Notes under the pieces: model-generated | Database searches by the model: none | Told to the model about the DNA's origin: nothing | What the model saw: the letters and a program-made list of their open reading frames with translations, nothing else | Origin: Dictyostelium discoideum | Taxonomy: Eukaryota | Length of the DNA stretch: 64,000 nt | Direction of reading: 5' to 3' | NCBI GenBank assembly: GCA_000004695.1 | Contig: CM000152.2 | Span: 5,536,001 to 5,600,000, forward strand | Shown here: positions 37,845 through 64,000 of the stretch, in pieces | Numbering within the stretch: position 1 is the first letter of the stretch | How the letters are laid out: each line of letters begins with the position of its first letter | Program-made: the position numbers and the translations under genes

Positions 37845-37952
37845 CATTTAAATTGAATTTTTATTAATTTTTTTTTTTTCTCACATCACCTCCAACAAAT
37901 AACAACCAACTTTAATTTTTCAATTTTTTTTTTTTATTATTTTTATTTTTAA

Positions 37953-40373: not shown

Positions 40374-40768
40374 ACAATTCCACCTCTCTCACTCTCCCTC
40401 CCCCTCCACTCTCGATAATTCATATTCTTTAATTACAACTTTAATATGAAAAAAAAAAAAAAAAAAAAAAAAAAGAAAAAAAAAATTTAAAAAAAAAAAG
40501 AAAAAAAAAAAGAAAAAAAAAAAAAAAAAAACTAAAATAATTCTCTTAATGAATTATGTATTAAAAGTAACAACAATCCACAATAATCCCAAAATAAAAA
40601 ATAAAATAAATAAAAAAACTGAATAAATTAAAAATATTTTGTATTATTGATTTCAATTATTTCATTTTTTTTTTTTCAGTCTTTGATATCCTAAAACTAC
40701 TTTTTTTTATTACTTGGAATTATTTTTTATTTATACAAATTATTATTATTATTATTTATTTTATATCA

Positions 40769-42232
40769 CTATATAAAGATAAGTTCTTTTACATTTGGTA
40801 AATCATTTTCTTGAATTATATGATCATATAACCGATTACAAATTGTTAATGATTTTACAGAAGGAATAATAAATGTGTCAAGTTTTTTATTAAAACTAGA
40901 ACCCAATTCTAATGATTCAACCAAAGGTATTACATTAATTGGAATATCTTGATTAAATTTATAACCTAATCTTAATTTTTTAATTGAATCCATGGATCCA
41001 ACTATTAATGGTTTATTAAATTCTGCACCAAGTTTTAAATATTTTAAATTATTAGGAAGATAACCTTTGTTAATTGATTGATTATATCTATCACCCAATA
41101 TTAATGAAGTTATTGAAGTTGATGATAGATTTGCATTTTCAAGTGGTTGATCAAAACAATAACCAAGTTCTAATGATATAATTGATTTTGGAATAGAGTA
41201 TGATTGTAACATTTGGTTAAAAATTCCTGTAATTGATAATGATGTACAAGAATTTGGTATTGAACCTTCAATTAGTGGTTTATCAAATGATACACCTAAA
41301 AATAAATCAACAACAGAGTTTGGTATTGAATTTGGTAAAAGGTTTTGATTAAAATTACTTTTAAATGTTAATTTTAATAAAGAACAAGGTAAATCACCTG
41401 GTGAAATTGGATGATTAAATTTTGAAAATGTTAAATCTGTAATGGATTGACCAAATGAATTTGCTATGATTGGTTGTGACCAACCATTTCCAAAATAAAG
41501 TGTTTTCAATTGTGATGGAAGTTGACCAATTTGAATTTGTTGATTGAAATTATTACCAAATATTAATGTAGTAATACAAGTTGCACCTAAATTTGCATTC
41601 TCTAATGATTGATTAAATGAATGACCAAAATTTAGTAATGTTAAACTTTGTGGTATTGAATATTCTACAATGGGTTGATTAAATAATAAACCAAATTCTA
41701 AAGTTTCCAATTGTTCAGGTAAGCAATCTTGTTGAATTGCTTGATTAAATATTGAAAATCTAATAGTTTTAACTGAATTTGGAATTGATCCATATGATAA
41801 CTGCTCATCATATCCTAATAAATTCAATTCTGTAATGGAGTCTGATTCAAAATATCCCTCTCTTAAATATCTCTTAAAATTTGGAAGTGATAGTTTAGTT
41901 ATTGATTTTGGTAATTTAATTGTTGACGGTTCCATATTATCCAAAATAATAATTGATTTTAAAAAATTTTTATTTTTATATTTATTTAATCTTTTTATAT
42001 CTAAAAAGGTTTTTTCATTCTCACCTATTCTTTCAATCGTACCTTTTAATAATTGATTTGAAATAATTTTTCTTAAATATTTATTTTTCCAAATTTTATT
42101 ATAAAATAATTCACCAATTTCATTATCATTTAAAATTTTAATCAATTGATTTTCTTTATTATCATTCCTAATTAATTTAAATATTAAACTATATTCTTTA
42201 ATAATTATAATTGTACGATTTCTATTATTCAT
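40769..42232 (-). CDS. FNIP-repeat-containing protein (487 aa, single exon)
   Basis: About 15 tandem ~22-aa repeats fit the Dictyostelium FNIP repeat pattern (...L.FG..FNQPL..GSIP.S...L.FG..FNQ.I...LP..L..L.FG; e.g. LEFGLLFNQPIVEYSIPQSLTLLNFGHSFNQSLENANLG, LYFGNGWSQPIIANSFGQSITDLTFSKFNHPI). Uninterrupted ORF. Confidence 0.75.
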   Translation of the reverse strand: MNNRNRTIIIIKEYSLIFKLIRNDNKENQLIKILNDNEIGELFYNKIWKNKYLRKIISNQLLKGTIERIGENEKTFLDIKRLNKYKNKNFLKSIIILDNMEPSTIKLPKSITKLSLPNFKRYLREGYFESDSITELNLLGYDEQLSYGSIPNSVKTIRFSIFNQAIQQDCLPEQLETLEFGLLFNQPIVEYSIPQSLTLLNFGHSFNQSLENANLGATCITTLIFGNNFNQQIQIGQLPSQLKTLYFGNGWSQPIIANSFGQSITDLTFSKFNHPISPGDLPCSLLKLTFKSNFNQNLLPNSIPNSVVDLFLGVSFDKPLIEGSIPNSCTSLSITGIFNQMLQSYSIPKSIISLELGYCFDQPLENANLSSTSITSLILGDRYNQSINKGYLPNNLKYLKLGAEFNKPLIVGSMDSIKKLRLGYKFNQDIPINVIPLVESLELGSSFNKKLDTFIIPSVKSLTICNRLYDHIIQENDLPNVKELIFI

Positions 42233-42398
42233 TTTTTTAAACTAAAATAAAAAAAAAAAAAAAAATCAAATCAAAAAAAAAGTAAAAAAAAAAAAAAAAA
42301 AAAAAATCATTGAGAGTTTTAAATTTAAGTTTTTTCTAAAAAAAATCATTGAGAGGAAAAAAAAAAAGGTAACCAACCTATTGATTCCATCAGGCTTA

Positions 42399-45724: not shown

Positions 45725-47349
45725 AAGTTAATTATTTAATTAAAAAAAAAAAAAGAAGAGATAGGTAATGTTACAAGTGTAATAATATTGAAAGTAATTA
45801 ATATCAGAAAAAGAAAAAAAGAAAAAGAAAAAAAGAAAAAAAAAAAACAAAAAAAAAAAAATAAATAAATAAAAGATTTTTTAGTCTCCTCAAAATGAGA
45901 ATAGTTTGAAAATAATTATTTTAAAAAATTAACCAATCATCTGAGCACAAGCTTGTAATTAATAATAATAATAATTTTGTGATTTTATCGTGATTGGGAC
46001 ACAATATTATTATGAGAAAAATAGTATACAATAATTTTATCTAAAGTATTTTAGATTTTTAATCAATGATTGGCTAAAAAAAAAAAAAAAAAAAAAAAAA
46101 TTTAGATTTGGGAAGATATTAAAAATTGTGTGGGCGAGGGGGGTCAGCAATGAACGATGATTTTTTTTTTATTGAAAAACATTACAATAATTTTATTTTA
46201 TTTTTTTTTTTTTCTGCCGAGCCAATCAAAAAATTATCTCGTTTTACGATTATTAGAAATAATTCGTTTTGTCGAAATTTTACAATCAAAAAACCAAGAA
46301 CACAAAAAGGAAATCGTTTTTGGTCAAAAATATTCAACAGAAATTAAAAAGAACACAATATAACTTTCTTTTATTGATTTTTTTTTTTTTTTTTTTAAGT
46401 TTTTTTTTTTTTTTTTTATCTATTTTTTTATTTTCATTTTTTTTTTATTTAAAAACTTAAAAAGAAAAAAAAAAAAAAAAGAAATAATTTTTATGACATA
46501 AATTCATATACTAAATAAAGTAATATTTATCTAGATTATCATTATTAATAATAATAAAAACAATTAAAATTATTTAAATAATCTTAATTGGGCAAAATAA
46601 AAATTAAAAAAAAGGTGGTTAGAATGTGTATACTTGTGGTTAAAGAATAAAAAAAAATAAATAAAAAAAAAATGTGAAACTTGAAAATTTAAATTAAGGA
46701 ATGTTTTTTATGTAATACACATGTTTTAAAAGCAAACCCCTTAACAGTAAACACACAGTTGTGTTCAGTGTAATGTAAACACAAAAAAAAAAAAAAAAAA
46801 AAAAAAAAATAATACTAAAAAATAAATTTATTTTTTAAAGTCAAAAGACGTTATATACAAATAAAAATAAAAAAAATAAAAAAAAAATAATTTCTTTGAA
46901 AAATTACAGAAAATAAAGAAAATCTTAAAAAACCAATAATGCAACGGTTTTTAAATTTATTTTTGTACTCCCTAAGCTAAAGGGTACTAGTATTTTAATT
47001 ATTTAATTTAAAAATAATTTTTTCAACTTTTTTTATTTTTATTTTTTTTTTATTTTTATTTTTATATTTTTTCTCTTGTAACCCACCAAACTTAGCCGAC
47101 ATATGTGAGGTGGAGGGTTTGCATGTAATCACATTTTTTTATAATTGTTTTTTTTTTTTTTTTTTATAAGTTTTTTTTTTTTTTTTTTTCTTTTCTTATG
47201 TTCTTAAAAAAAAAGTAATAATAATATAATAATAATAAAAGTTTAAAAAAAAATAAAAAATAAAAAAAGACCAAAGTTATAAATATATTTAAAAATAAAA
47301 ATAAAAACTTTATAAAAATATCTAAAGAAATAAAAAAAAATAAAATAAA

Positions 47350-50894: not shown

Positions 50895-53680
50895 ATGAAT
50901 TACGAAATTGTTATGGACGAGCATCAAAGTTTGTATTAAAAAAAAAAAAAAAAACTAAAAATAATTAAATTTTTATATGTAAATATTAATATAAAAAATT
51001 CAACAGAATTCATTGATGAAAATTTAAAGAATTTCTATGGAGAGCATAAACATTTTGTAGAATGGATGGATTCAAGATCATTAGCATCAAAAAGATTTAA
51101 AAAAAGATTAATTGTTATTGGTGAATATAGAATTTTAAGTGTAAAAAAAGGAAAAGTTTCAATATCTTTAAATAAAAATATTCATTTTTATGATATAGCT
51201 GATATAATAGTCGTTGAAGATACTGTATGTATTTTTTTTTTTTCTCAAAAATATTATTATTTAAAATACTAACATATAATTATTTATTAATTTTCAAAAA
51301 AAAAAAAGATTGAAATTAGACAAAAACAAGTTATAAAAGGTGATCAAATTGGTATATTAATAAAATCAAAACAAAAAGAAAGTTTACAAATGATATTAAA
51401 ATTGTTAAGAGAAAAGATTAGAAATATTACACATGGATTTCCAAGTACTAGTCAATTGAGAATTAATGCAAATGAGAGTTATTTATTACCAATTCAAGAG
51501 AAAGTTATTGGAATAGCTGATAATTTCATAGAGACTTATAAAGCACAATCATCCTACAAAAATAATGAACCAAGTACAGAGGTGATTAGATTGGTTGAAA
51601 AGTATGTTCAAGATTGTTGTAGAGAATTTGATTTATCAAAATGTCCAGGATTTGAAGGTAAAAGTGAATTAAATTTTCAAATTGATACTGTAATTTCATC
51701 ATTAAATTATAATGGTTATTTCAATTCAATTATTATTAATGGTAATAGTTGTGGTGGTAGTACTAATATTGGTGGCAGTGGTGGTGGCAGTGGTGGTGGT
51801 AATAGTAGTATAGGAGTTAATCAAAAAGGTTTAGTTGAAAAAGTTGGTGAATTATTATCAACAAATTGTTGTGTTAGAAAAATATCAATTTTTAATTGTA
51901 AAGATGATGATCAAGTATTATCAACCATTGGTACATCGTTAATTGGTAATCAATTTAATTTATTACAAGTTATAGATTTACATAGTAACCATTTAAATCA
52001 ATCAACATTTCAAACATTTGCAGATGGTATTGAAACAATGACACATCATTCACTTAGATATTTAAATCTATCAGATTGCAACCTATCATCAAGATCAGTT
52101 GAAATATTATTTAATTCATTCTGTAAGAATAGTAAAATCTCTACATCATTAGAGTATTTAAATTTATCATACTCAAAATTCGACGAGGTTGGTAGTAGTT
52201 CATTCACAAGTTGGTTAGCAAAGATCAAAGATGATAATGTATTAAAGTTTTTATATTTAACCAATTGTAATTTAAATTTAATTGTGATTGGAGCACAACT
52301 TAGAAATTTACCTTTGCTACGTGTATTGGATATTTCTAATAATAGATTAGAGAGAACTGAAATTGAAGAGTTAATTGCATTCATAAAGAATTCAAGGGCA
52401 TTGGAATCATTGAATATTTCAAATTGTTCACTTAATCATGACTATTTCCTCTACATTTGTAATACACTAAATAAGAATGAATATATTAAACATTTAGATT
52501 TAAATGTATCACATAATCAAATTTCAAAGTCGCCAAGTATCTTTGTTAGCGCATTGGAGTTTCTTACTATGGTGAATTCGTTAAATTTATCTCATATTCC
52601 CATTACTTATAAAACTTTGATTAGAGTTGTTGATTCAATTAGAATCTATTGTAAAAATATTAGAGAATTGATATTGGATGCTTGTTTCTCCCATTCAAAT
52701 GATAAATCTCATGATGGTATTGATTTCATTAATGAGTTGAAACAATTCCTTAGAGAGAGAGAATCATTGAAATCTTTATCTATAGGTGGTGACAATTCAA
52801 ACTACTTATCACCAAAATTGGTTATACCATTAATTGAATATTTAACCAACGAAAATGGTACATTGGAGCAATTGAATATTCAACACTCCCATCTTGGTGA
52901 TTCAGTTATGCCCTATATTGCTAATTTATTAGAACGTAATTCAACTTTGAAATCTTTATCATTGGATAGAAATTATTTCACTATTAATTCCTTCCAAACT
53001 CTATTGCTATCATTACAAAATAATCATACACTTTTAAATATACCTTTCCCATCATATGATTTTGAAAAAATTTTAATTACATTACCAACAGCTCAAAAGA
53101 AATCATTATTATTTAATTTACTTTATAGAATTCAATCAATTTTAGAAGAAAATGGTGGTTGGAGAATACCTGATCCTCATTTTTATCCTGTACCAACTTC
53201 ATTAACTACTGGTAATAATACTAGTGGTGGTTCAAATTTACAATTATTAGGTGGTGGTAGTGGTGGTAGTGGTAGTAATAGTGGTGGTTCTAATTTACAA
53301 TTACAACAACGTCCATCTTCACCAACTAGTAGTTCAAGTGGTAGTGGTTATAGAAGTAAAAGCCCAACACCTGTAACAACTTCATATGGTTCTTCTGCAT
53401 ATTCACAACAACATTATGATAATTTATCATTACCACCTCCACCTGTTGATAATTATTATAACAATAACTATTATCAAAATGAAAGTGAAGGTGGTGATGA
53501 TGATTATTATAATCATCAACAACAATCATCCCAACAAAAATATCAAAATAGAGCAACATTAAGTCCAACAAATAGAAATCAACAACAACAACAATACCAA
53601 AATAGAAATCAAAGAATTGAATTAACTGATAGTTTTGTTGAAGCTGTTGATCATTTAAATGATGAAGAAAATCTTGATTG

Positions 53681-53681
<1 letters not shown>
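50895..53681 (+). CDS. CARMIL-like leucine-rich-repeat protein (PH-like N-terminus + LRR cap + ~15 LRRs + Pro/Gly/Ser-rich tail). Three exons: 50895-50928, 51007-51224, 51309-53681.
   Basis: The N-terminus (FKKRLIVIGEYRILSVKKGKVSISLNKNIHFYDIADIIVVEDTV | IEIRQKQVIKGDQIGILIKSKQKESLQMILKLLREKIRNITHGFPS) resembles the non-canonical PH domain of CARMIL (VLVLTSCRAFLVT...LELTFSYLEIHGVV). It is followed by many LxxLxLSxNxL repeats (LQVIDLHSNHLNQ, LRYLNLSDCNLSS, LEYLNLSYSKFDE, LRVLDISNNRLERTEIEEL, LESLNISNCSLNH, LKSLSLDRNYFT...). The C-terminus has GGGSGGSGS and PPPPVDNYY tracts. The family call is an inference. Confidence 0.45.
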
Positions 53682-53741
<60 letters not shown>

Positions 53742-54475
53742 TATTAATAAAAAATTTTATTTAAAGTTCTCAATAATCCTAATCTATAATCTGTTTCAAA
53801 ATTTTAGGTTAACCTTTTTTTTTTTTTATTTATTTTTTTTATTTCTAAAAACTATTAACACCCCAAGTGGTTATTTAAAAACAAAAAAAAAAAAAAACCT
53901 ATCATCGTATTGATAATCACTCTAATCTAAATTCAATGGTTTTTTTTTTAAAAATAAAAAAATAGGTGAGACCCATTTTCGTTTATGGATATTTATTTTT
54001 TCACTTCGTTCAATTGCGAACAAAAAACAGATCAAAACTTAATTTTCTACTATTTTTTTTTTTTTTAATTTTTTTTTTTAATTTTTTTTATAGAAAATAT
54101 CTAGCTTGAAATTTAAAAAAAAAAAAAAAAAAAAAGTGATTGGGAAACCATTAAATACAGACGATAATTTTTTTTTTATTCTTCATTATTCATAAAACTT
54201 ACTCCACCCATCACAATAAAAAAAAATAAAATTAAAATTAAAAATAAAAATAAATTTTCCCCCCCCATAATTATTTATTTTTAATTTTTTTTTTTTTTTG
54301 CATTTTTGCTTAATTTTATTTGTATTTTTAATATTATTATTTATTATTTTTTTTTTTTATATTTTATTAATTTTTTTTTTTTGTATTTTTGATAAATTAA
54401 TTTAAATTTATTTTTAATAAATAAAACAAAAAAAAAAAAAAAATCAAAAATCAAAAACTCATAGTTTGTAATAAA

Positions 54476-54661
54476 ATGAAATTTCGGAATAATTTAACTC
54501 TTTATTTAATATTTATAATAGTATTTACAATTTATATTAGTTTAACTATCTCTATTCCATTAAAAAATGGAAAGTTTTGGTATGTATAAAAATAATAAAA
54601 ATTAATTAAATTGAAACCTTGCCATAAATAAAAAAAAAAAAAGAAAATAATGTGTGTTTAG

Positions 54662-54692
<31 letters not shown>

Positions 54693-56144
54693 TTGTTAAT
54701 AAAAAATAATAATAATAATAGGCATATAACAGATACACACTATGATTTTATGTATATTGAAGGAGGTGATGAAGATAAACAATGTAGAGAGGTAACATAC
54801 AAAAGTAAATATGAAAAAGGTGGTGCATCATCAATTGGTAATTATAAATGTGATACATCATTTGAACTATTACAATCATCATTTGAATATATGGTAAAAC
54901 ATGAAGAAAAACCTGATTTTATAATTTGGACTGGTGATGTATGTATCCAACATATCTTTTTTTTTATTATTTTTAAAATTTATATGTTTATTTATTTTAT
55001 TTTTTAAAAAACAACAAATAGGATCCACCACATTTAGGTAATTCACAATTAAATGAAACATTAGTACTTCAATCAATTACAAATATGACAAATTTAATTA
55101 AAGGGTATTTCCCAGATATACCAATATTTCCAAGTATTGGTAATCATGACAGTTATCCTCAACATCAGATTGGAGTTGGACCAAATTGGTTATTTGAAAA
55201 TGTTGCACAATTATGGTCACCATTTCTATCAAATGATTCAATTGAAACTTTTAAATTGGGTGGATACTATACTGAATTGGTTAGTGAAGGATTTAGAATA
55301 ATATCATTGAATACAGTTTTCTATTATAATGAGAATAGACAATGTTTAAATCTAACTGACCCAGCTGGTCAATTATTATGGTTGAATGAAACATTGGCAA
55401 ATGCATCTTTAGCAGGTGAAAGAGTTTGGATCATTGGTCATGTACCACCTGGTTATAATGAGAAATATGATGTTTTCAATTTTCATAAACAATTCAATGA
55501 TGAATATTTATTCTCATTCTCTCAATATTCCGATATAATCGAATTTCATATCTATGGTCATGAACATACTGATACTTTTAGATTATTTTATGATGATCCA
55601 AATGATCATATAAATGATATTGAACCAACTGGTATTATGTTTTTATCACCATCTGTATTGTATTAATTTATTAAATTTATAAATTACTTTATTTTATTAC
55701 TATTTTTTTTACTAATATTTTTTTTTTTATATATCTATTAAAAAAAAAAAAAAAAAGTTAACACCATGGATGAATCAATTTTTACCAGCATTACCAAATA
55801 ATCCAGGATTAAGATTATATGAATATAATATTACATCATTTGCATTATTAGATTATTATCAATTTTGGACAAATTTAACAGATAATATTATTAGTGGAAA
55901 TATTGATTGGCAACTTGAATATCGTGCAACTGAATTCTTTAATACTTTTAATTTATCACCAGTTTCAATGTATGAAGCTTATTTACTAATTCAATCAGTT
56001 ACAAGTCAATTGTTAAAATTTCATTTCTATAATTCTGTATCTTATCCAACTAAAGGTTGTGATGAAATTTGTAAAAAAATTCAATTATGTTCAATTAGAC
56101 ACCCTTTCACTAAAGGTTTTAAGGAATGTTTAGTTGAAATTTAA
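54476..56144 (+). CDS. Acid sphingomyelinase-like phosphodiesterase (ASM/SMPDL3 family calcineurin-like metallophosphoesterase). Four exons: 54476-54579, 54722-54938, 55022-55654, 55758-56144.
   Basis: Signal peptide MKFRNNLTLYLIFIIVFTIYISL. The metal-binding motifs are present: HITDTHYD, IIWTGD, PSIGNHD, RVWIIGHVPPG, and GHEHTD. The C-terminal domain aligns with SMPDL3A (LSPS|LTPWMNQFLPALPNNPGLRLYEYNITSFALLDYYQFWTNLTD vs LGPSVTPVKSVLEKQTNNPGIRLFQYDPRDYKLLDMLQYYLNLTE), and the conserved C-terminal Cys pattern CDEICKKIQLCSI is present. Confidence 0.8.
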
Positions 56145-56465
56145 ATCAATTAATAATTTCTTTTTTTTTTTTAAAAAAAAAAAAAACAACGGGTGTAATA
56201 AAAAAAAAAAAAAAATAAGAAAAAGAATAAAAATAATACAAAATAAAAAAAATGAATAATTTTATTTGTTTAATTCTTACAAACAAACTCCTAATTAAAT
56301 TCCAGCTTTTTTTTTTTTATATCCAACTTTTTTATTTTTAACTTTTTCATTTTCAACTTTTTTTTTTTCAACTTTTTTTTTTTTTTTTTCAACTTTTTTT
56401 TTTTTCAACTTTTTTTTTTTAAAAAAAAAAAATTTATTATTTTAAAACATTAAATTAAAAAAATA

Positions 56466-57048
56466 ATGAAATTATTATATTGTTTATTATTAGTCATTTT
56501 GGCTTTAGTTGGTTTATCATCAGGTGCTAAGCCAAGTGATAAATTACAAATTGGTGTAAAATATCGTCCAGATGAATGCACTGTTAAAACTAAAAGTGGT
56601 GATAAATTAAAGATTCATTATACTGGTACTTTATTAAATGGAGACAAGTAGGTTATCATAGTTTTACATCATTATACATAGATATATATATAATACAAAA
56701 AAAAAAAAAAAAGAATATACTAAAATTTTTAATAACAATATTTAGATTTGATTCATCAGTTGACCGTGGAACACCATTCGAATTCAAAATAGGTGTTGGT
56801 CAAGTAATTAAAGGTTGGGATCAAGGTGTTTTAGGTATGTGTGTAGGTGAAAAGAGAAAATTAATAATCCCAGTAAGTATTTTTTTTTTTTTTTTTTTTT
56901 TTATTTATTATTTTATTTTGAAATAATTTCAATTTTACTAATTCATTAATAATAGCCAAGCCTTGGTTATGGTCAACAAGGAGCAGGTGATAAAATTCCA
57001 GGAAACTCTCATTTAATTTTTGATGTTGAATTAATTGGAATTAATTAA
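56466..57048 (+). CDS. FKBP-type peptidyl-prolyl cis-trans isomerase with signal peptide (FKBP2/FKBP13-like, secretory pathway). Three exons: 56466-56647, 56746-56872, 56956-57048.
   Basis: [21 protein letters not shown] signal peptide, then [33 protein letters not shown]|[42 protein letters not shown]|[30 protein letters not shown], matching the FKBP consensus (HYTG.L.DG..FDSS..R..PF.F.LG.G.VI.GWD.G...M..GE.R.L.IP..L.YG..G....IP.N..L.F.VEL). GTAGGT and GTAAGT donors. Confidence 0.85.
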
Positions 57049-57105
57049 AAGAAACACAGTAATGATTTTTAATAATAAATTGAAAAAAATAAAAAAGAAC
57101 CCAAA

Positions 57106-57142
<37 letters not shown>

Positions 57143-57607
57143 AAAATAACAATTTATCTATTCAATTTTTTCCTTTTTTTTTTCCTCATAAGATTTACCC
57201 AATTTTTTTTTTTTTTTTTTTAATTAAATTGTTCAAATATTTTATTTTGTAATTCTTGGTGATTAAATTATTTGATTTATAATAATCTTTTCATTTGACC
57301 ACTTGGCACCACTTCTACAATTCTTAATTTCTAAATTCTTTTAAAATTTTAATTTTTTTTTTTTTTTTTGGACTTTACAACGAATAAAAAAAAAGCCAAA
57401 GAAAAATAAAATGAAAAAGTCTTTTTTTAGAATTTATTAACTTTTTTTTTTTTAGTTTCAAAGTGATAAAAAAATGAATAATAATAATAAAAATAATATT
57501 AATAATATTATTAAAAATATATAATACTTATATTAATAGTAAATTGTAAAATTATATAATAATTTTAATAATTATTTTATTTTTACAAACACTTGTTGGT
57601 TTGGATG

Positions 57608-57645
<38 letters not shown>

Positions 57646-57705
57646 TCATCCCACTCTTTTTATTATAAAAAATAAAAAAAAAAAAAAAAATGAGGCCAAC
57701 CAAGA

Positions 57706-57756
<51 letters not shown>

Positions 57757-57860
57757 TTTAATTTTTTAATTTTTTAATTTTTTAATTTTAAATTTATCCC
57801 ACTTTTTTTTTTCATTCCACAAGATTCTCTTTATAATATTTTAGTAATACTTTCTCTCAT

Positions 57861-57907
<47 letters not shown>

Positions 57908-57995
57908 GAGAAAGAGTTGCTAAATTTGTAATTATAGGAAAAACAAAAGAATTTTTTTTTTTATATTTGGGAAATTTATTTTTAATTAATTTATT

Positions 57996-58027
<32 letters not shown>

Positions 58028-58029
58028 AT

Positions 58030-58033
<4 letters not shown>

Positions 58034-58096
<63 letters not shown>
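58034..58096. repeat. (CA)n / (GT)n dinucleotide microsatellite (~31 units) ending 43 bp upstream of the RhoGEF ATG
   Basis: Perfect CA run, flanked upstream by (ATTT)n. Confidence 0.9.
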
Positions 58097-58101
<5 letters not shown>

Positions 58102-58138
58102 ATCAAGTTTAGATAAAAAAAAAAAAATAATAAATAAA

Positions 58139-61368
<3,230 letters not shown>

Positions 61369-62460
61369 GAAAAAAAAAAAAAAAAAAAAAAAAGCAATAA
61401 AAAAAAAACAAAAACAAAACAAAACAAATAAAAAAAAAATAATAATAATTCGAATGTTAACTAGTTAATTAGTCAAAAGGTTTAAAATAAAAATAAAAAT
61501 AAAAATAAAAAAATAAAATAAAAATAAAATTTTTTTATTATTAAAAATTATAAGGAGTTGGAATTTAAATTAATAATAATCAATGATTTAATTAATAAGA
61601 TAAATTAATCAAATTAATAAATATAAATTTAAATTCACATTTATTTAAAAAAATAAATATTTTCAATCGAAAATGGACTAGTGATAAATCAAAAAAAAAA
61701 AAAAAAAACTTAACAAAACAAACAAATAAAAAAATTAAAATAAATTAAAAAATTTTAAAAAAAAAAAAAAATATCAACCCATTTTAGGAACTATTATAAA
61801 TATGTATTTAATCATTGATAAAAAAATTAGTGTGGTGTTTTGTTTGATTAGTAATTTTTAAAAAAAAATAAAAAAATAAAAAAAATAAAAAATAAAAACA
61901 ATAAAAAGGTTATGATTACCTTTCTCATATATTCACCATTAAAAAAAATATGATGTTTTTTATAATTCCATTGTTTAAAATACATTTTTATTATCAGATT
62001 GAATTATTTATTGTTTACTATAATTGTCGTCACTTCAAGAAAAAAAAAAAAAACCTTTTAAATATATATATGTGTCTTTTAAAAAATTAAAATATAATAT
62101 ATATATATATATATATATTATTAATTAAATATTATTTTTATTTTTTATTTTTATTTAATTTAATTTAATTTAATTTTTTTTTTTTTTTTTTTAAAACTTA
62201 TAATTTTGTTTCTTTAAATTTTTAGGAATAGTATTTTTTAGTTTTTTTAATTATTTGATATCTTTTTGATTGATTTATCTTTTTTATATTTTATTACCCC
62301 AAAAATTTATAAAAGTTTTTAAATTCTAAAAAGTTATATTAATTTATTTGTATTTATAAAATATAAAAAAAAAAAAAAAAAAAAAATGGTATGTGTTTAA
62401 TTTTTAGTTTTTTTTAACCAGTATTAATATTATTATAATTCATTTTCAAAATTATTATTA

Positions 62461-62609
<149 letters not shown>

Positions 62610-62818
62610 TATGCAGACCTTTTTTTTTTAAAAAAAAAAATTTATTGTAATTGTGAAAAAAAAAAAAAAAAAGTACACAAACTTGTTTTTTTAATTTTAT
62701 TGTTAAATATTTTTTTTTTAAAAAAATAATAAAAGAAATAAAGATAGGTAATTTTGTTTTAACAAATAATAAAAAAAAAAAACAAAACTATATTTTTCAT
62801 TTTTATAATTACCATATT

Positions 62819-62861
<43 letters not shown>

Positions 62862-63116
62862 ATACAAATCTTTGATCCTAAACATTTGAATATAAAATGT
62901 ATTTAGATAGAAATAAAATGTATTTAGATAGAAATAATGTATCATCAATAATGCTATTTTTTATAAAAAAAAAAAACAAATTAACCCATTTACATAAAAA
63001 TGTGGTTTTGTTTTAATTGTATTTAGAAAAAAAAAAAAAAAAAGTGTGAAAATAACAATAAGAATATTTATATTTTTCATTCTTTATTTGGATGTGGAGT
63101 TTTGTTTATATTTTTT

Positions 63117-63190
63117 TATATTTTATTTTATTTTATTTTATTTTGTTTTATTTTATTTTATTTTATTTTATTTTATTTTATTTTATATTT
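63117..63190. repeat. (ATTTT)n pentanucleotide repeat (~15 units)
   Basis: TTTTA/TTTTG units seen directly. Confidence 0.85.
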
Positions 63191-63290
63191 TGTTTTTTTT
63201 TTTTTTTTTTTTTTTTTCATTATTTGTTAAGAAAAAAGATAATTATAAATAATAAAAATAAAAAATTAACAAATTATAATTACTATATAG

Positions 63291-63891
63291 GTAAAATTAT
63301 CCCAACAAGATCTCGAAAATTTTGCCCTATTTGAATCAGTATTAAAACCAGTTAACGATCCTAAACAAAAACCAGAACAATATATATCATCAATTGAAAG
63401 TAGTGGTATGCCAAAAAAAGAAGTAGTAATGAATAAATTTAGATCCTCAACTACATATGAATACGTTATTGAAAATAGTGTAATTATTACTTTATTTTAA
63501 TTATTTTTATTATTTTTATAAAATATTAATATCATATTTGATAATTTAATTTAGCCACCACCAAAAATCTTTGTAAATAATGAAAGTAAAAATGAAAACA
63601 ACAATAATAATGATAATAGTAATAATAACAATAAAAACAATAATAATAATTACTCTACCAATACAAAGCCAAGATCAAAATCATGTCCACCAGCTAAAGA
63701 ATTACCATGTAACAACTGTAAAAGAATGAGTCCAATTGATTTATTGGAACCATGTGAAAGATGTGGAAATGGATGTTATTGTTCAGAAGAGTGTCAGTAT
63801 TAAAATTGGATATCACATCGTAAAAATTGTAAATCAGTTTGTAAGGTTGTGAAAATGTCTAGAAATAATAGTTTTTAATGATTAAAATAAA
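63291..63891 (+). CDS. MYND-type zinc-finger protein. The exons in view are 63291-63486 and 63558-63803, ending at TAA 63801-63803, but the MYND consensus continues in frame to TAA 63889-63891. A possible ATG-only first exon lies at 62386-62388.
   Basis: Exon A is ...QQDLENFALFESVLKPVNDPKQKPEQYISSIESSGMPKKEVVMNKFRSSTTYEYVIENS, followed by a GTAATT donor. Exon B is PPPKIFVNNESKNENNNN...KPRSKSCPPAKELPCNNCKRMSPIDLLEPCERCGNGCYCSEECQY*NWISHRKNCKSVCK. This fits the MYND consensus C-x2-C-x(7-9)-C-x2-C-x5-YCS-x2-CQ-x3-W-x2-H-x3-C, except that the middle of the three Q-to-W spacer residues is an in-frame TAA. Confidence 0.4.
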
Positions 63892-64000
63892 AAGTAATAT
63901 TTGAAAAGTCTATTTATTTATTAAAAAATCTTTGTGGATCTTAATTTTTTATTATTTTTGTCAAGATATTTTTTTTTTTTTTAACAAATTTTTTTTTCTT

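Follow-up and report, generated by a model that had tools for sequence, protein, structure and literature searches.

The in-frame TAA codon that interrupts the MYND zinc finger of the Dictyostelium discoideum gene DDB_G0282275 is, in all likelihood, a Sanger base-calling error in the 2005 AX4 reference and not a feature of the gene. The codon occupies positions 63801-63803 of the window, i.e., the whole stretch of 64,000 nucleotides of AX4 chromosome 3 analyzed here, which has a composition of 21% G+C. In the proposed scenario, a low-quality stretch of the Sanger reference would have led to four wrong calls within 44 bp (63801, 63826, 63832, and 63844). The actual AX4 sequence would most likely read GAA...AGT...AGA...ATG at these sites, the same as in the sister strain AX2. 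With the corrected bases the finger would be intact, the last His and Cys completing its second zinc site. The product of DDB_G0282275 is an ordinary, conserved, intact small MYND-finger protein of dictyostelids.

The stop codon within the MYND finger

Direct reading of the sequence places the TAA in frame with the exon at 63555-63878, between the CQ and the W of a complete MYND finger. The conceptual translation of this exon ends in ...CNNCKRMSPIDLLEPCERCGNGCYCSEECQY-stop-NWISHRKNCKSVCKVVKMSRNNSF-stop (in a longer form, ...KPRSKSCPPAKELPCNNCKRMSPIDLLEPCERCGNGCYCSEECQY-stop-NWISHRKNCKSVCKVVKMSRNNSF-stop). Across the TAA, the consensus Trp and all eight zinc-ligand positions are kept with canonical spacing, so that the ligands follow the C4-C2HC order as C-NN-C-x11-C-ER-C-x5-C-SEE-C-x7-H-RKN-C. 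The sequence-only reading, in which the stop had been placed inside the MYND core among exactly spaced consensus residues, is borne out in every detail by the sequence and its translation. The feature is delimited as follows:

63708..63830, plus strand: MYND zinc finger, C-x2-C-x11-C-x2-C-x5-C-x3-C-x7-H-x3-C, defined by Pfam PF01753 (model positions 1-39 of 39) and by the alignment with SMYD2

The effect of the stop on the recognition of the domain was followed with the Pfam zf-MYND profile (PF01753), for which the gathering score of 22.7 bits served as the cutoff. When X is put at the stop position, the protein scores 30.6 bits over model positions 1-39 of 39, above the cutoff, and when it is cut at the TAA the score falls to 18.8 bits over positions 1-28 of 39, below the cutoff. 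The sequence repaired with the AX2 bases reaches 32.0 bits over the whole model (1-39 of 39) and is a member of PF01753. The annotated AX4 protein (XP_640322 / Q54SR3) ends in ...CSEECQY and fails to reach the cutoff, with 16.7 bits over positions 1-28 of 39; as had been predicted from the sequence, it lacks the last His and Cys ligands. In known MYND structures, the second zinc ion is held jointly by the second Cys pair and the last His and Cys. A product cut at the TAA would, by analogy, lose one of the two zinc sites. Family membership further predicts the binding of two zinc ions and protein-protein contacts with PxLxP-type ligands for the complete product.

The closest known system considered is the MYND finger of human SMYD2, with which the finger shares the eight-ligand arrangement C-x2-C...C-x2-C...C-x3-C...H-x3-C and the YC(S/N)xxCQxxxW core. 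It aligns to the SMYD2 MYND sequence as CQKEDWPMHKLEC / CGRCKQAFYCNVECQKEDWPMHKLEC, and SMYD2 has Glu at the stop position (CQKEDW). Unlike SMYD2, the DDB_G0282275 product is a stand-alone protein of 171 aa with a dictyostelid-specific N-terminus, an Asn-rich linker, and a VVKMSRNNSF tail. A Pfam profile search found no partner domain in it, whether SET, PWWP/bromo, or another.

Orthologues and the structure of the gene

Nine orthologues were collected by protein search: the D. discoideum assemblies ACTFIR, ACTFIW, and ACTFIT (the last treated below as AX2), D. cf. discoideum, D. firmibasis, D. citrinum, D. dimigraforme, D. purpureum, and Heterostelium album. Comparison with orthologues and other strains had been proposed from the sequence as a check on the stop, and it shows that none of them terminates at 63801-63803. 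All nine have a sense codon there, encoding Glu except for Ala in D. purpureum and Heterostelium. At the DNA level, which could be read for seven orthologues, six have GAA and D. purpureum has GCA, with no intron nearby. The eight-ligand MYND pattern is kept in 9/9 orthologues, as are the W, H, and C and then the tail ...VVKMSRNNSF. Therefore, the absence of termination in the orthologues, together with the absence of splicing before the TAA, implies that the sequence after the TAA is genuinely coding.

In the C-terminal 70 codons, the comparison of AX2 with D. firmibasis gives a dN of 0.023 and a dS of 0.39. For the diverged D. discoideum strains ACTFIR and ACTFIW, 6-8 differences are synonymous and none is non-synonymous. 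Such counts indicate that purifying selection acts on the gene, the 25 codons after the stop included. A rival explanation is that the exon ends by splicing before the TAA, or that the likeness of the downstream residues to the MYND consensus is coincidental. No supporting point was found for this explanation, which has a negligible chance of being correct. The orthologues read through the same codons without an intron, contrary to what the sequence-only reading had named as the observation that would overturn it, and the tail is under purifying selection. The argument that the consensus residues after the stop are not due to chance holds, given the rise in the Pfam score from 18.8 to 30.6 bits and the sense codon and identical downstream residues of the orthologues. 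A paralogue acting as the donor of gene conversion was considered as well and rejected: tblastn of the window revealed no second copy, and the homologue search revealed no AX4 paralogue.

The same comparison bears on programmed stop-codon readthrough, or recoding, in which the TAA would be decoded as an amino acid and the full finger made. The sole support for it comes from the MYND consensus that continues in frame past the stop, and in this conserved coding potential the locus resembles the leaky UGA and UAG codons of viruses and metazoans. It differs from them in that the stop is conserved in no relative, being replaced by Glu or Ala in AX2 and the rest of the 9/9 orthologues, so a recoding signal would have no evolutionary history. 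TAA-A is the most efficient terminator context of eukaryotes. The context here, TAT TAA AAT TGG, is of this strong type, and neither a CARYYA- nor a CUAG-type motif follows downstream; no leaky context or stimulatory element is present. The single paper on stop-codon readthrough centered on Dictyostelium that the literature search retrieved raises it only as a possibility under eRF3 aggregation (PMC11537047). Readthrough at this codon is thus extremely improbable.

The gene at 63291-63878 on the plus strand of the window corresponds to AX4 DDB_G0282275 (XP_640322 / Q54SR3, model P0009), annotated with 223 aa. Its structure, as compared with the orthologous loci, is as follows:

62386..62388, plus strand: putative first exon of one codon, ATG followed by the splice donor GTATGTGT, the likely true start, with a conserved motif
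62389..63290, plus strand: putative intron 1, 902 bp, very AT-rich, ending in ...tatatag, with a conserved acceptor
63291..63479, plus strand: exon 2, 63 codons, VKLSQQDLENF...YVIENS, from translation
63480..63554, plus strand: intron 2, 75 bp, GT...AG, phase 0; all orthologous proteins join ...IENS/PPPK...
63555..63878, plus strand: exon 3, closed by the true stop TAA at 63876-63878, from translation and orthologue comparison

The AX4 model begins with MYLDRNNVSSIMLFF...FYFILFYFILYF, which is the translation of AT-rich (ATTTT)n repeat DNA. The 5′ end of this model is wrong, its N-terminus being repeat-derived junk. The motif aaaaATG/GTATGTGT stands at the annotated starts in ACTFIR, ACTFIW, D. 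firmibasis, D. citrinum, and D. cf. discoideum and is also found in the window, and this conservation suggests that the true start of DDB_G0282275 is the one-codon exon at 62386-62388. An intron of 700-900 bp follows the one-codon first exon in five orthologous loci and would be 902 bp long in AX4, which would be unusually long for Dictyostelium. The acceptor of this intron, tatatag/GTAAAATTA, is the same in AX4 and ACTFIR (L001). The loss of a start codon, with tatatAG/GTAAAATTA as the destroyed ATG, was rejected, as the splice acceptor is found in all strains and a conserved ATG/GTATGTGT lies upstream. Exon 2 is identical to that of AX2 and differs from those of ACTFIR and ACTFIW by 2-3 synonymous and 0 non-synonymous changes.

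Read with the AX2 bases, the gene yields a product of 171 aa, which comprises a conserved N-terminal region (PEQYISSIESSGMPKKEVVMNKFRSSTTYEYVIENSPPPK), a linker that is rich in Asn and varies in length, KPRSKSCPPAKELP, a single MYND finger, and the VVKMSRNNSF tail. The literature search found no paper mentioning DDB_G0282275. The annotations of AX2 (P0010) and D. dimigraforme (P0005) each have their own different 5′ exon. The inferred intron 1 includes, at 62453-62610, an uninterrupted (ATT)n microsatellite with about 50 units, which has about 4 units in the diverged D. discoideum strain L001; in this repeat the AX2 assembly matches AX4.

Reference-only bases in the gene and across the window

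Among the ten genomes described by Holland et al., AX2-214 alone comes from a laboratory strain of the AX4 lineage, and the rest are stated to have diverged from AX4 (PMC12745789). Assembly ACTFIT (GCA_054883475.1) presumably represents AX2-214, since this is the only one of the ten not described as diverged. Its record CM142509.1 (6.43 Mb; L002) matches the window at 52841-64000 with 99.2% identity. Inside the gene, only four bases differ between the two, all within 44 bp:

63801, plus strand: T in the AX4 reference, G in AX2 (TAA vs. GAA)
63826, plus strand: A in the AX4 reference, G in AX2 (Asn vs. Ser)
63832, plus strand: A in the AX4 reference, G in AX2 (Lys vs. Arg)
63844, plus strand: A in the AX4 reference, T in AX2 (Lys vs. 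Met)

At all four sites, the diverged strains L001 and L003 agree with AX2, and the AX4 reference alone differs among the D. discoideum strains. The T at 63801 is confined to the AX4 reference; all other Dictyostelium sequences read have G. The Arg (63832) and Met (63844) are kept in other species too. The reference base at 63826 is also found in D. cf. discoideum (Asn, AAT), and D. firmibasis likewise has Asn (AAC). Each of the four reference bases is a copy of its 5′ neighbor. The nearest other substitution relative to AX2 lies about 850 bp upstream, at 62948, and none occurs in the last 156 bp of the window. In the gene, the AX4 reference thus differs from AX2 by 0 synonymous, 3 non-synonymous, and 1 nonsense change. 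The sequence-only reading had listed several causes for the stop. Its branch of a strain-specific change or sequencing error stands, the AX4 reference alone carrying the TAA, and its branch of programmed readthrough falls with the GAA of the sister strain, the three companion substitutions, and the TAA-A context.

On the minus strand, 63697-63858 contains a stop-free frame of 54 codons, in which the reference-only substitutions are synonymous at three of the four sites and the only changes are Asn/His. This synonymy looks like a coincidence. A search with the alternative-frame ORFs of 63200-64000 returned no homologues of the 54-codon frame.

The four bases can also be taken at face value, as a real lesion of the AX3/AX4 lineage in which clustered mutagenesis or error-prone repair introduced one nonsense and three missense changes in 44 bp. 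The T, A, A, and A do stand in the deposited reference. AX2 and all outgroups differ from it, which would make the change derived on the AX4 branch. The excess of non-synonymous and nonsense over synonymous changes is compatible with the absence of constraint. G-to-A changes, such as a chemical mutagen would give, account for two of the four, which counts against a base-calling error, as does the Asn at 63826, which is shared with D. cf. discoideum and D. firmibasis and could be ancestral.

The rate of mutation in this lineage speaks against the lesion. A single laboratory clone, DdB, gave rise independently to AX2 and to AX3/AX4 (PMC2643946), so real divergence between them should be close to zero. 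Mutations have been measured to arise at 2.9e-11 per site per generation (PMC3466296). A group of four within 44 bp, with none in the approximately 850 bp upstream or in the last 156 bp, lies far beyond this rate. The discrepancy extends over a much longer distance: 32.5 kb of the window were aligned to the AX2 assembly in two pieces (L002 and L008), which revealed 50 substitutions, about 1.5 per kb, 39 of them in seven clusters. At 2.9e-11, their accumulation would need on the order of 5e7 generations.

The seven clusters contain 3-11 substitutions each and span 10-70 bp apiece. Besides the one in the gene, six more, equally tight and reference-only, fall in non-coding parts of these 32 kb. 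Transitions and transversions stand at 10:40 among the 50 substitutions. A neighboring base is matched by the reference base in 46/50 cases and by the AX2 base in 24/50, and only 6/50 are G:C-to-A:T changes. The spectrum consists mostly of A/T transversions and of run-lengthening A-to-C or T-to-G changes. An example of this pattern is 54256-54265, with TTTTCCCCCCCCATA in the reference and TATTACAACCACATA in three other strains. Similarly, 57969-57972 reads TTTGGGAAATT in the reference vs. TTTTGTTAATT, 37913-37942 has T-runs in the reference vs. TATATATA, and 37926-37934 has a T-run vs. TATATATATA. In the tight clusters that separate the reference from AX2 at 37913-37942, 46707-46729, 53744-53813, 54256-54265, and 57938-57988, mixed sequence is mostly replaced by homopolymer runs. 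These five are probably base-calling errors of the reference.

The direction of the differences could be determined with L001 and L003 at 53744-53813, 54204-54265, 54531, 54623, 57938-57988, 62948, and 63801-63844. The reference is always the private one and AX2 never is. Natural polymorphism between two wild strains was rejected on these grounds, as no polarizable difference is private to the AX2 assembly. Changes that copy a neighbor and extend a run are typical of poor Sanger traces and unlike the G:C-to-A:T changes of a mutagen. The spectrum of run-extending changes therefore points to base-calling errors rather than to a mutagen, and mutagen-induced clustered mutation was rejected as the general cause, with 6/50 G:C-to-A:T changes. 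The differences are clustered and recurrent in a pattern that no realistic mutation process would give, and all those that could be polarized are private to one assembly. From the sequences compared, we infer that the clusters are base-calling errors and not real AX4 mutations. The real lesion is left as an unlikely explanation, opposed by the six other reference-only clusters in non-coding DNA with their neighbor-copying A/T transversions and A-to-C changes. The literature search on the mutagenesis history of AX3 was unproductive.

The base-calling error can be set beside earlier resequencing. Saxer et al. reported in 2012 1916 candidate reference differences common to AX4-derived lines, which they put down to errors in the reference or to differences between stocks (PMC3466296). 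The approximately 11 substitutions of the window outside the seven larger clusters amount to about 3e-4 per site, comparable in order of magnitude to these discrepancies. Reads of 31 bp were mapped in that study with no more than one mismatch each (PMC3466296), and 63826 and 63832 are 6 bp apart, so reads over clusters such as 63801-63844 would have remained unmapped and the clusters been missed. No published list of reference discrepancies naming the 63801 site was found in the literature search.

Several further differences were observed in the same comparison. Isolated differences of a single base separate the reference from AX2 at 54531, 54623, and 37438; the first two fall within the annotated span of a Metallophos/ASMase_C gene (54476-56144, projected from L002), and the one at 54531 may alter the protein. 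At many sites in 33975-62829, nearly every long A/T homopolymer is 1-16 bases shorter in the Nanopore/Illumina assembly of AX2 than in the AX4 reference. Such shortening could be a length-calling bias of either technology or real slippage. The Logan contigs of the public Dictyostelium runs SRR26869256 and SRR26869267 (L009 and L010) are 100% identical to the window at 40513-42278, non-coding flanks included, a segment that covers no discrepant site. Reads of this lineage that are independent of the reference are thus publicly available. Searches with the 30-aa exon-2 ORF and with the alternative-frame ORFs of 63200-64000 retrieved no Logan contigs over the TAA locus.

Consequences for DDB_G0282275 and the AX4 reference

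If the TAA and its three companions were real, DDB_G0282275 would be an AX4-private null allele of a conserved MYND gene that is intact in AX2, an outcome to which we give a low probability, slightly below that of the lesion as such. The gene would then have been recently inactivated in AX4, its protein lacking both the second zinc site and the conserved tail. Such a natural knockout, in the Dictyostelium reference strain that is in widest use, would constitute one more difference between the AX2 and AX4 backgrounds.

With the TAA read as a base-calling error, the biological interest of the stop is small, and the practical value lies in the corrected annotation of DDB_G0282275 (Q54SR3). The present entry is truncated by a spurious stop, falls below the MYND threshold, and begins with a junk N-terminus; the corrected gene would give a MYND protein of 171 aa, with its start in the conserved one-codon exon. 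The comparison over 32 kb further indicates that the 2005 reference holds tight clusters of miscalls, which can create false stops and to which short-read resequencing with strict mismatch limits is blind. For in-frame stops in AX4 gene models, a comparison with the AX2-214 assembly is due before recoding is proposed.
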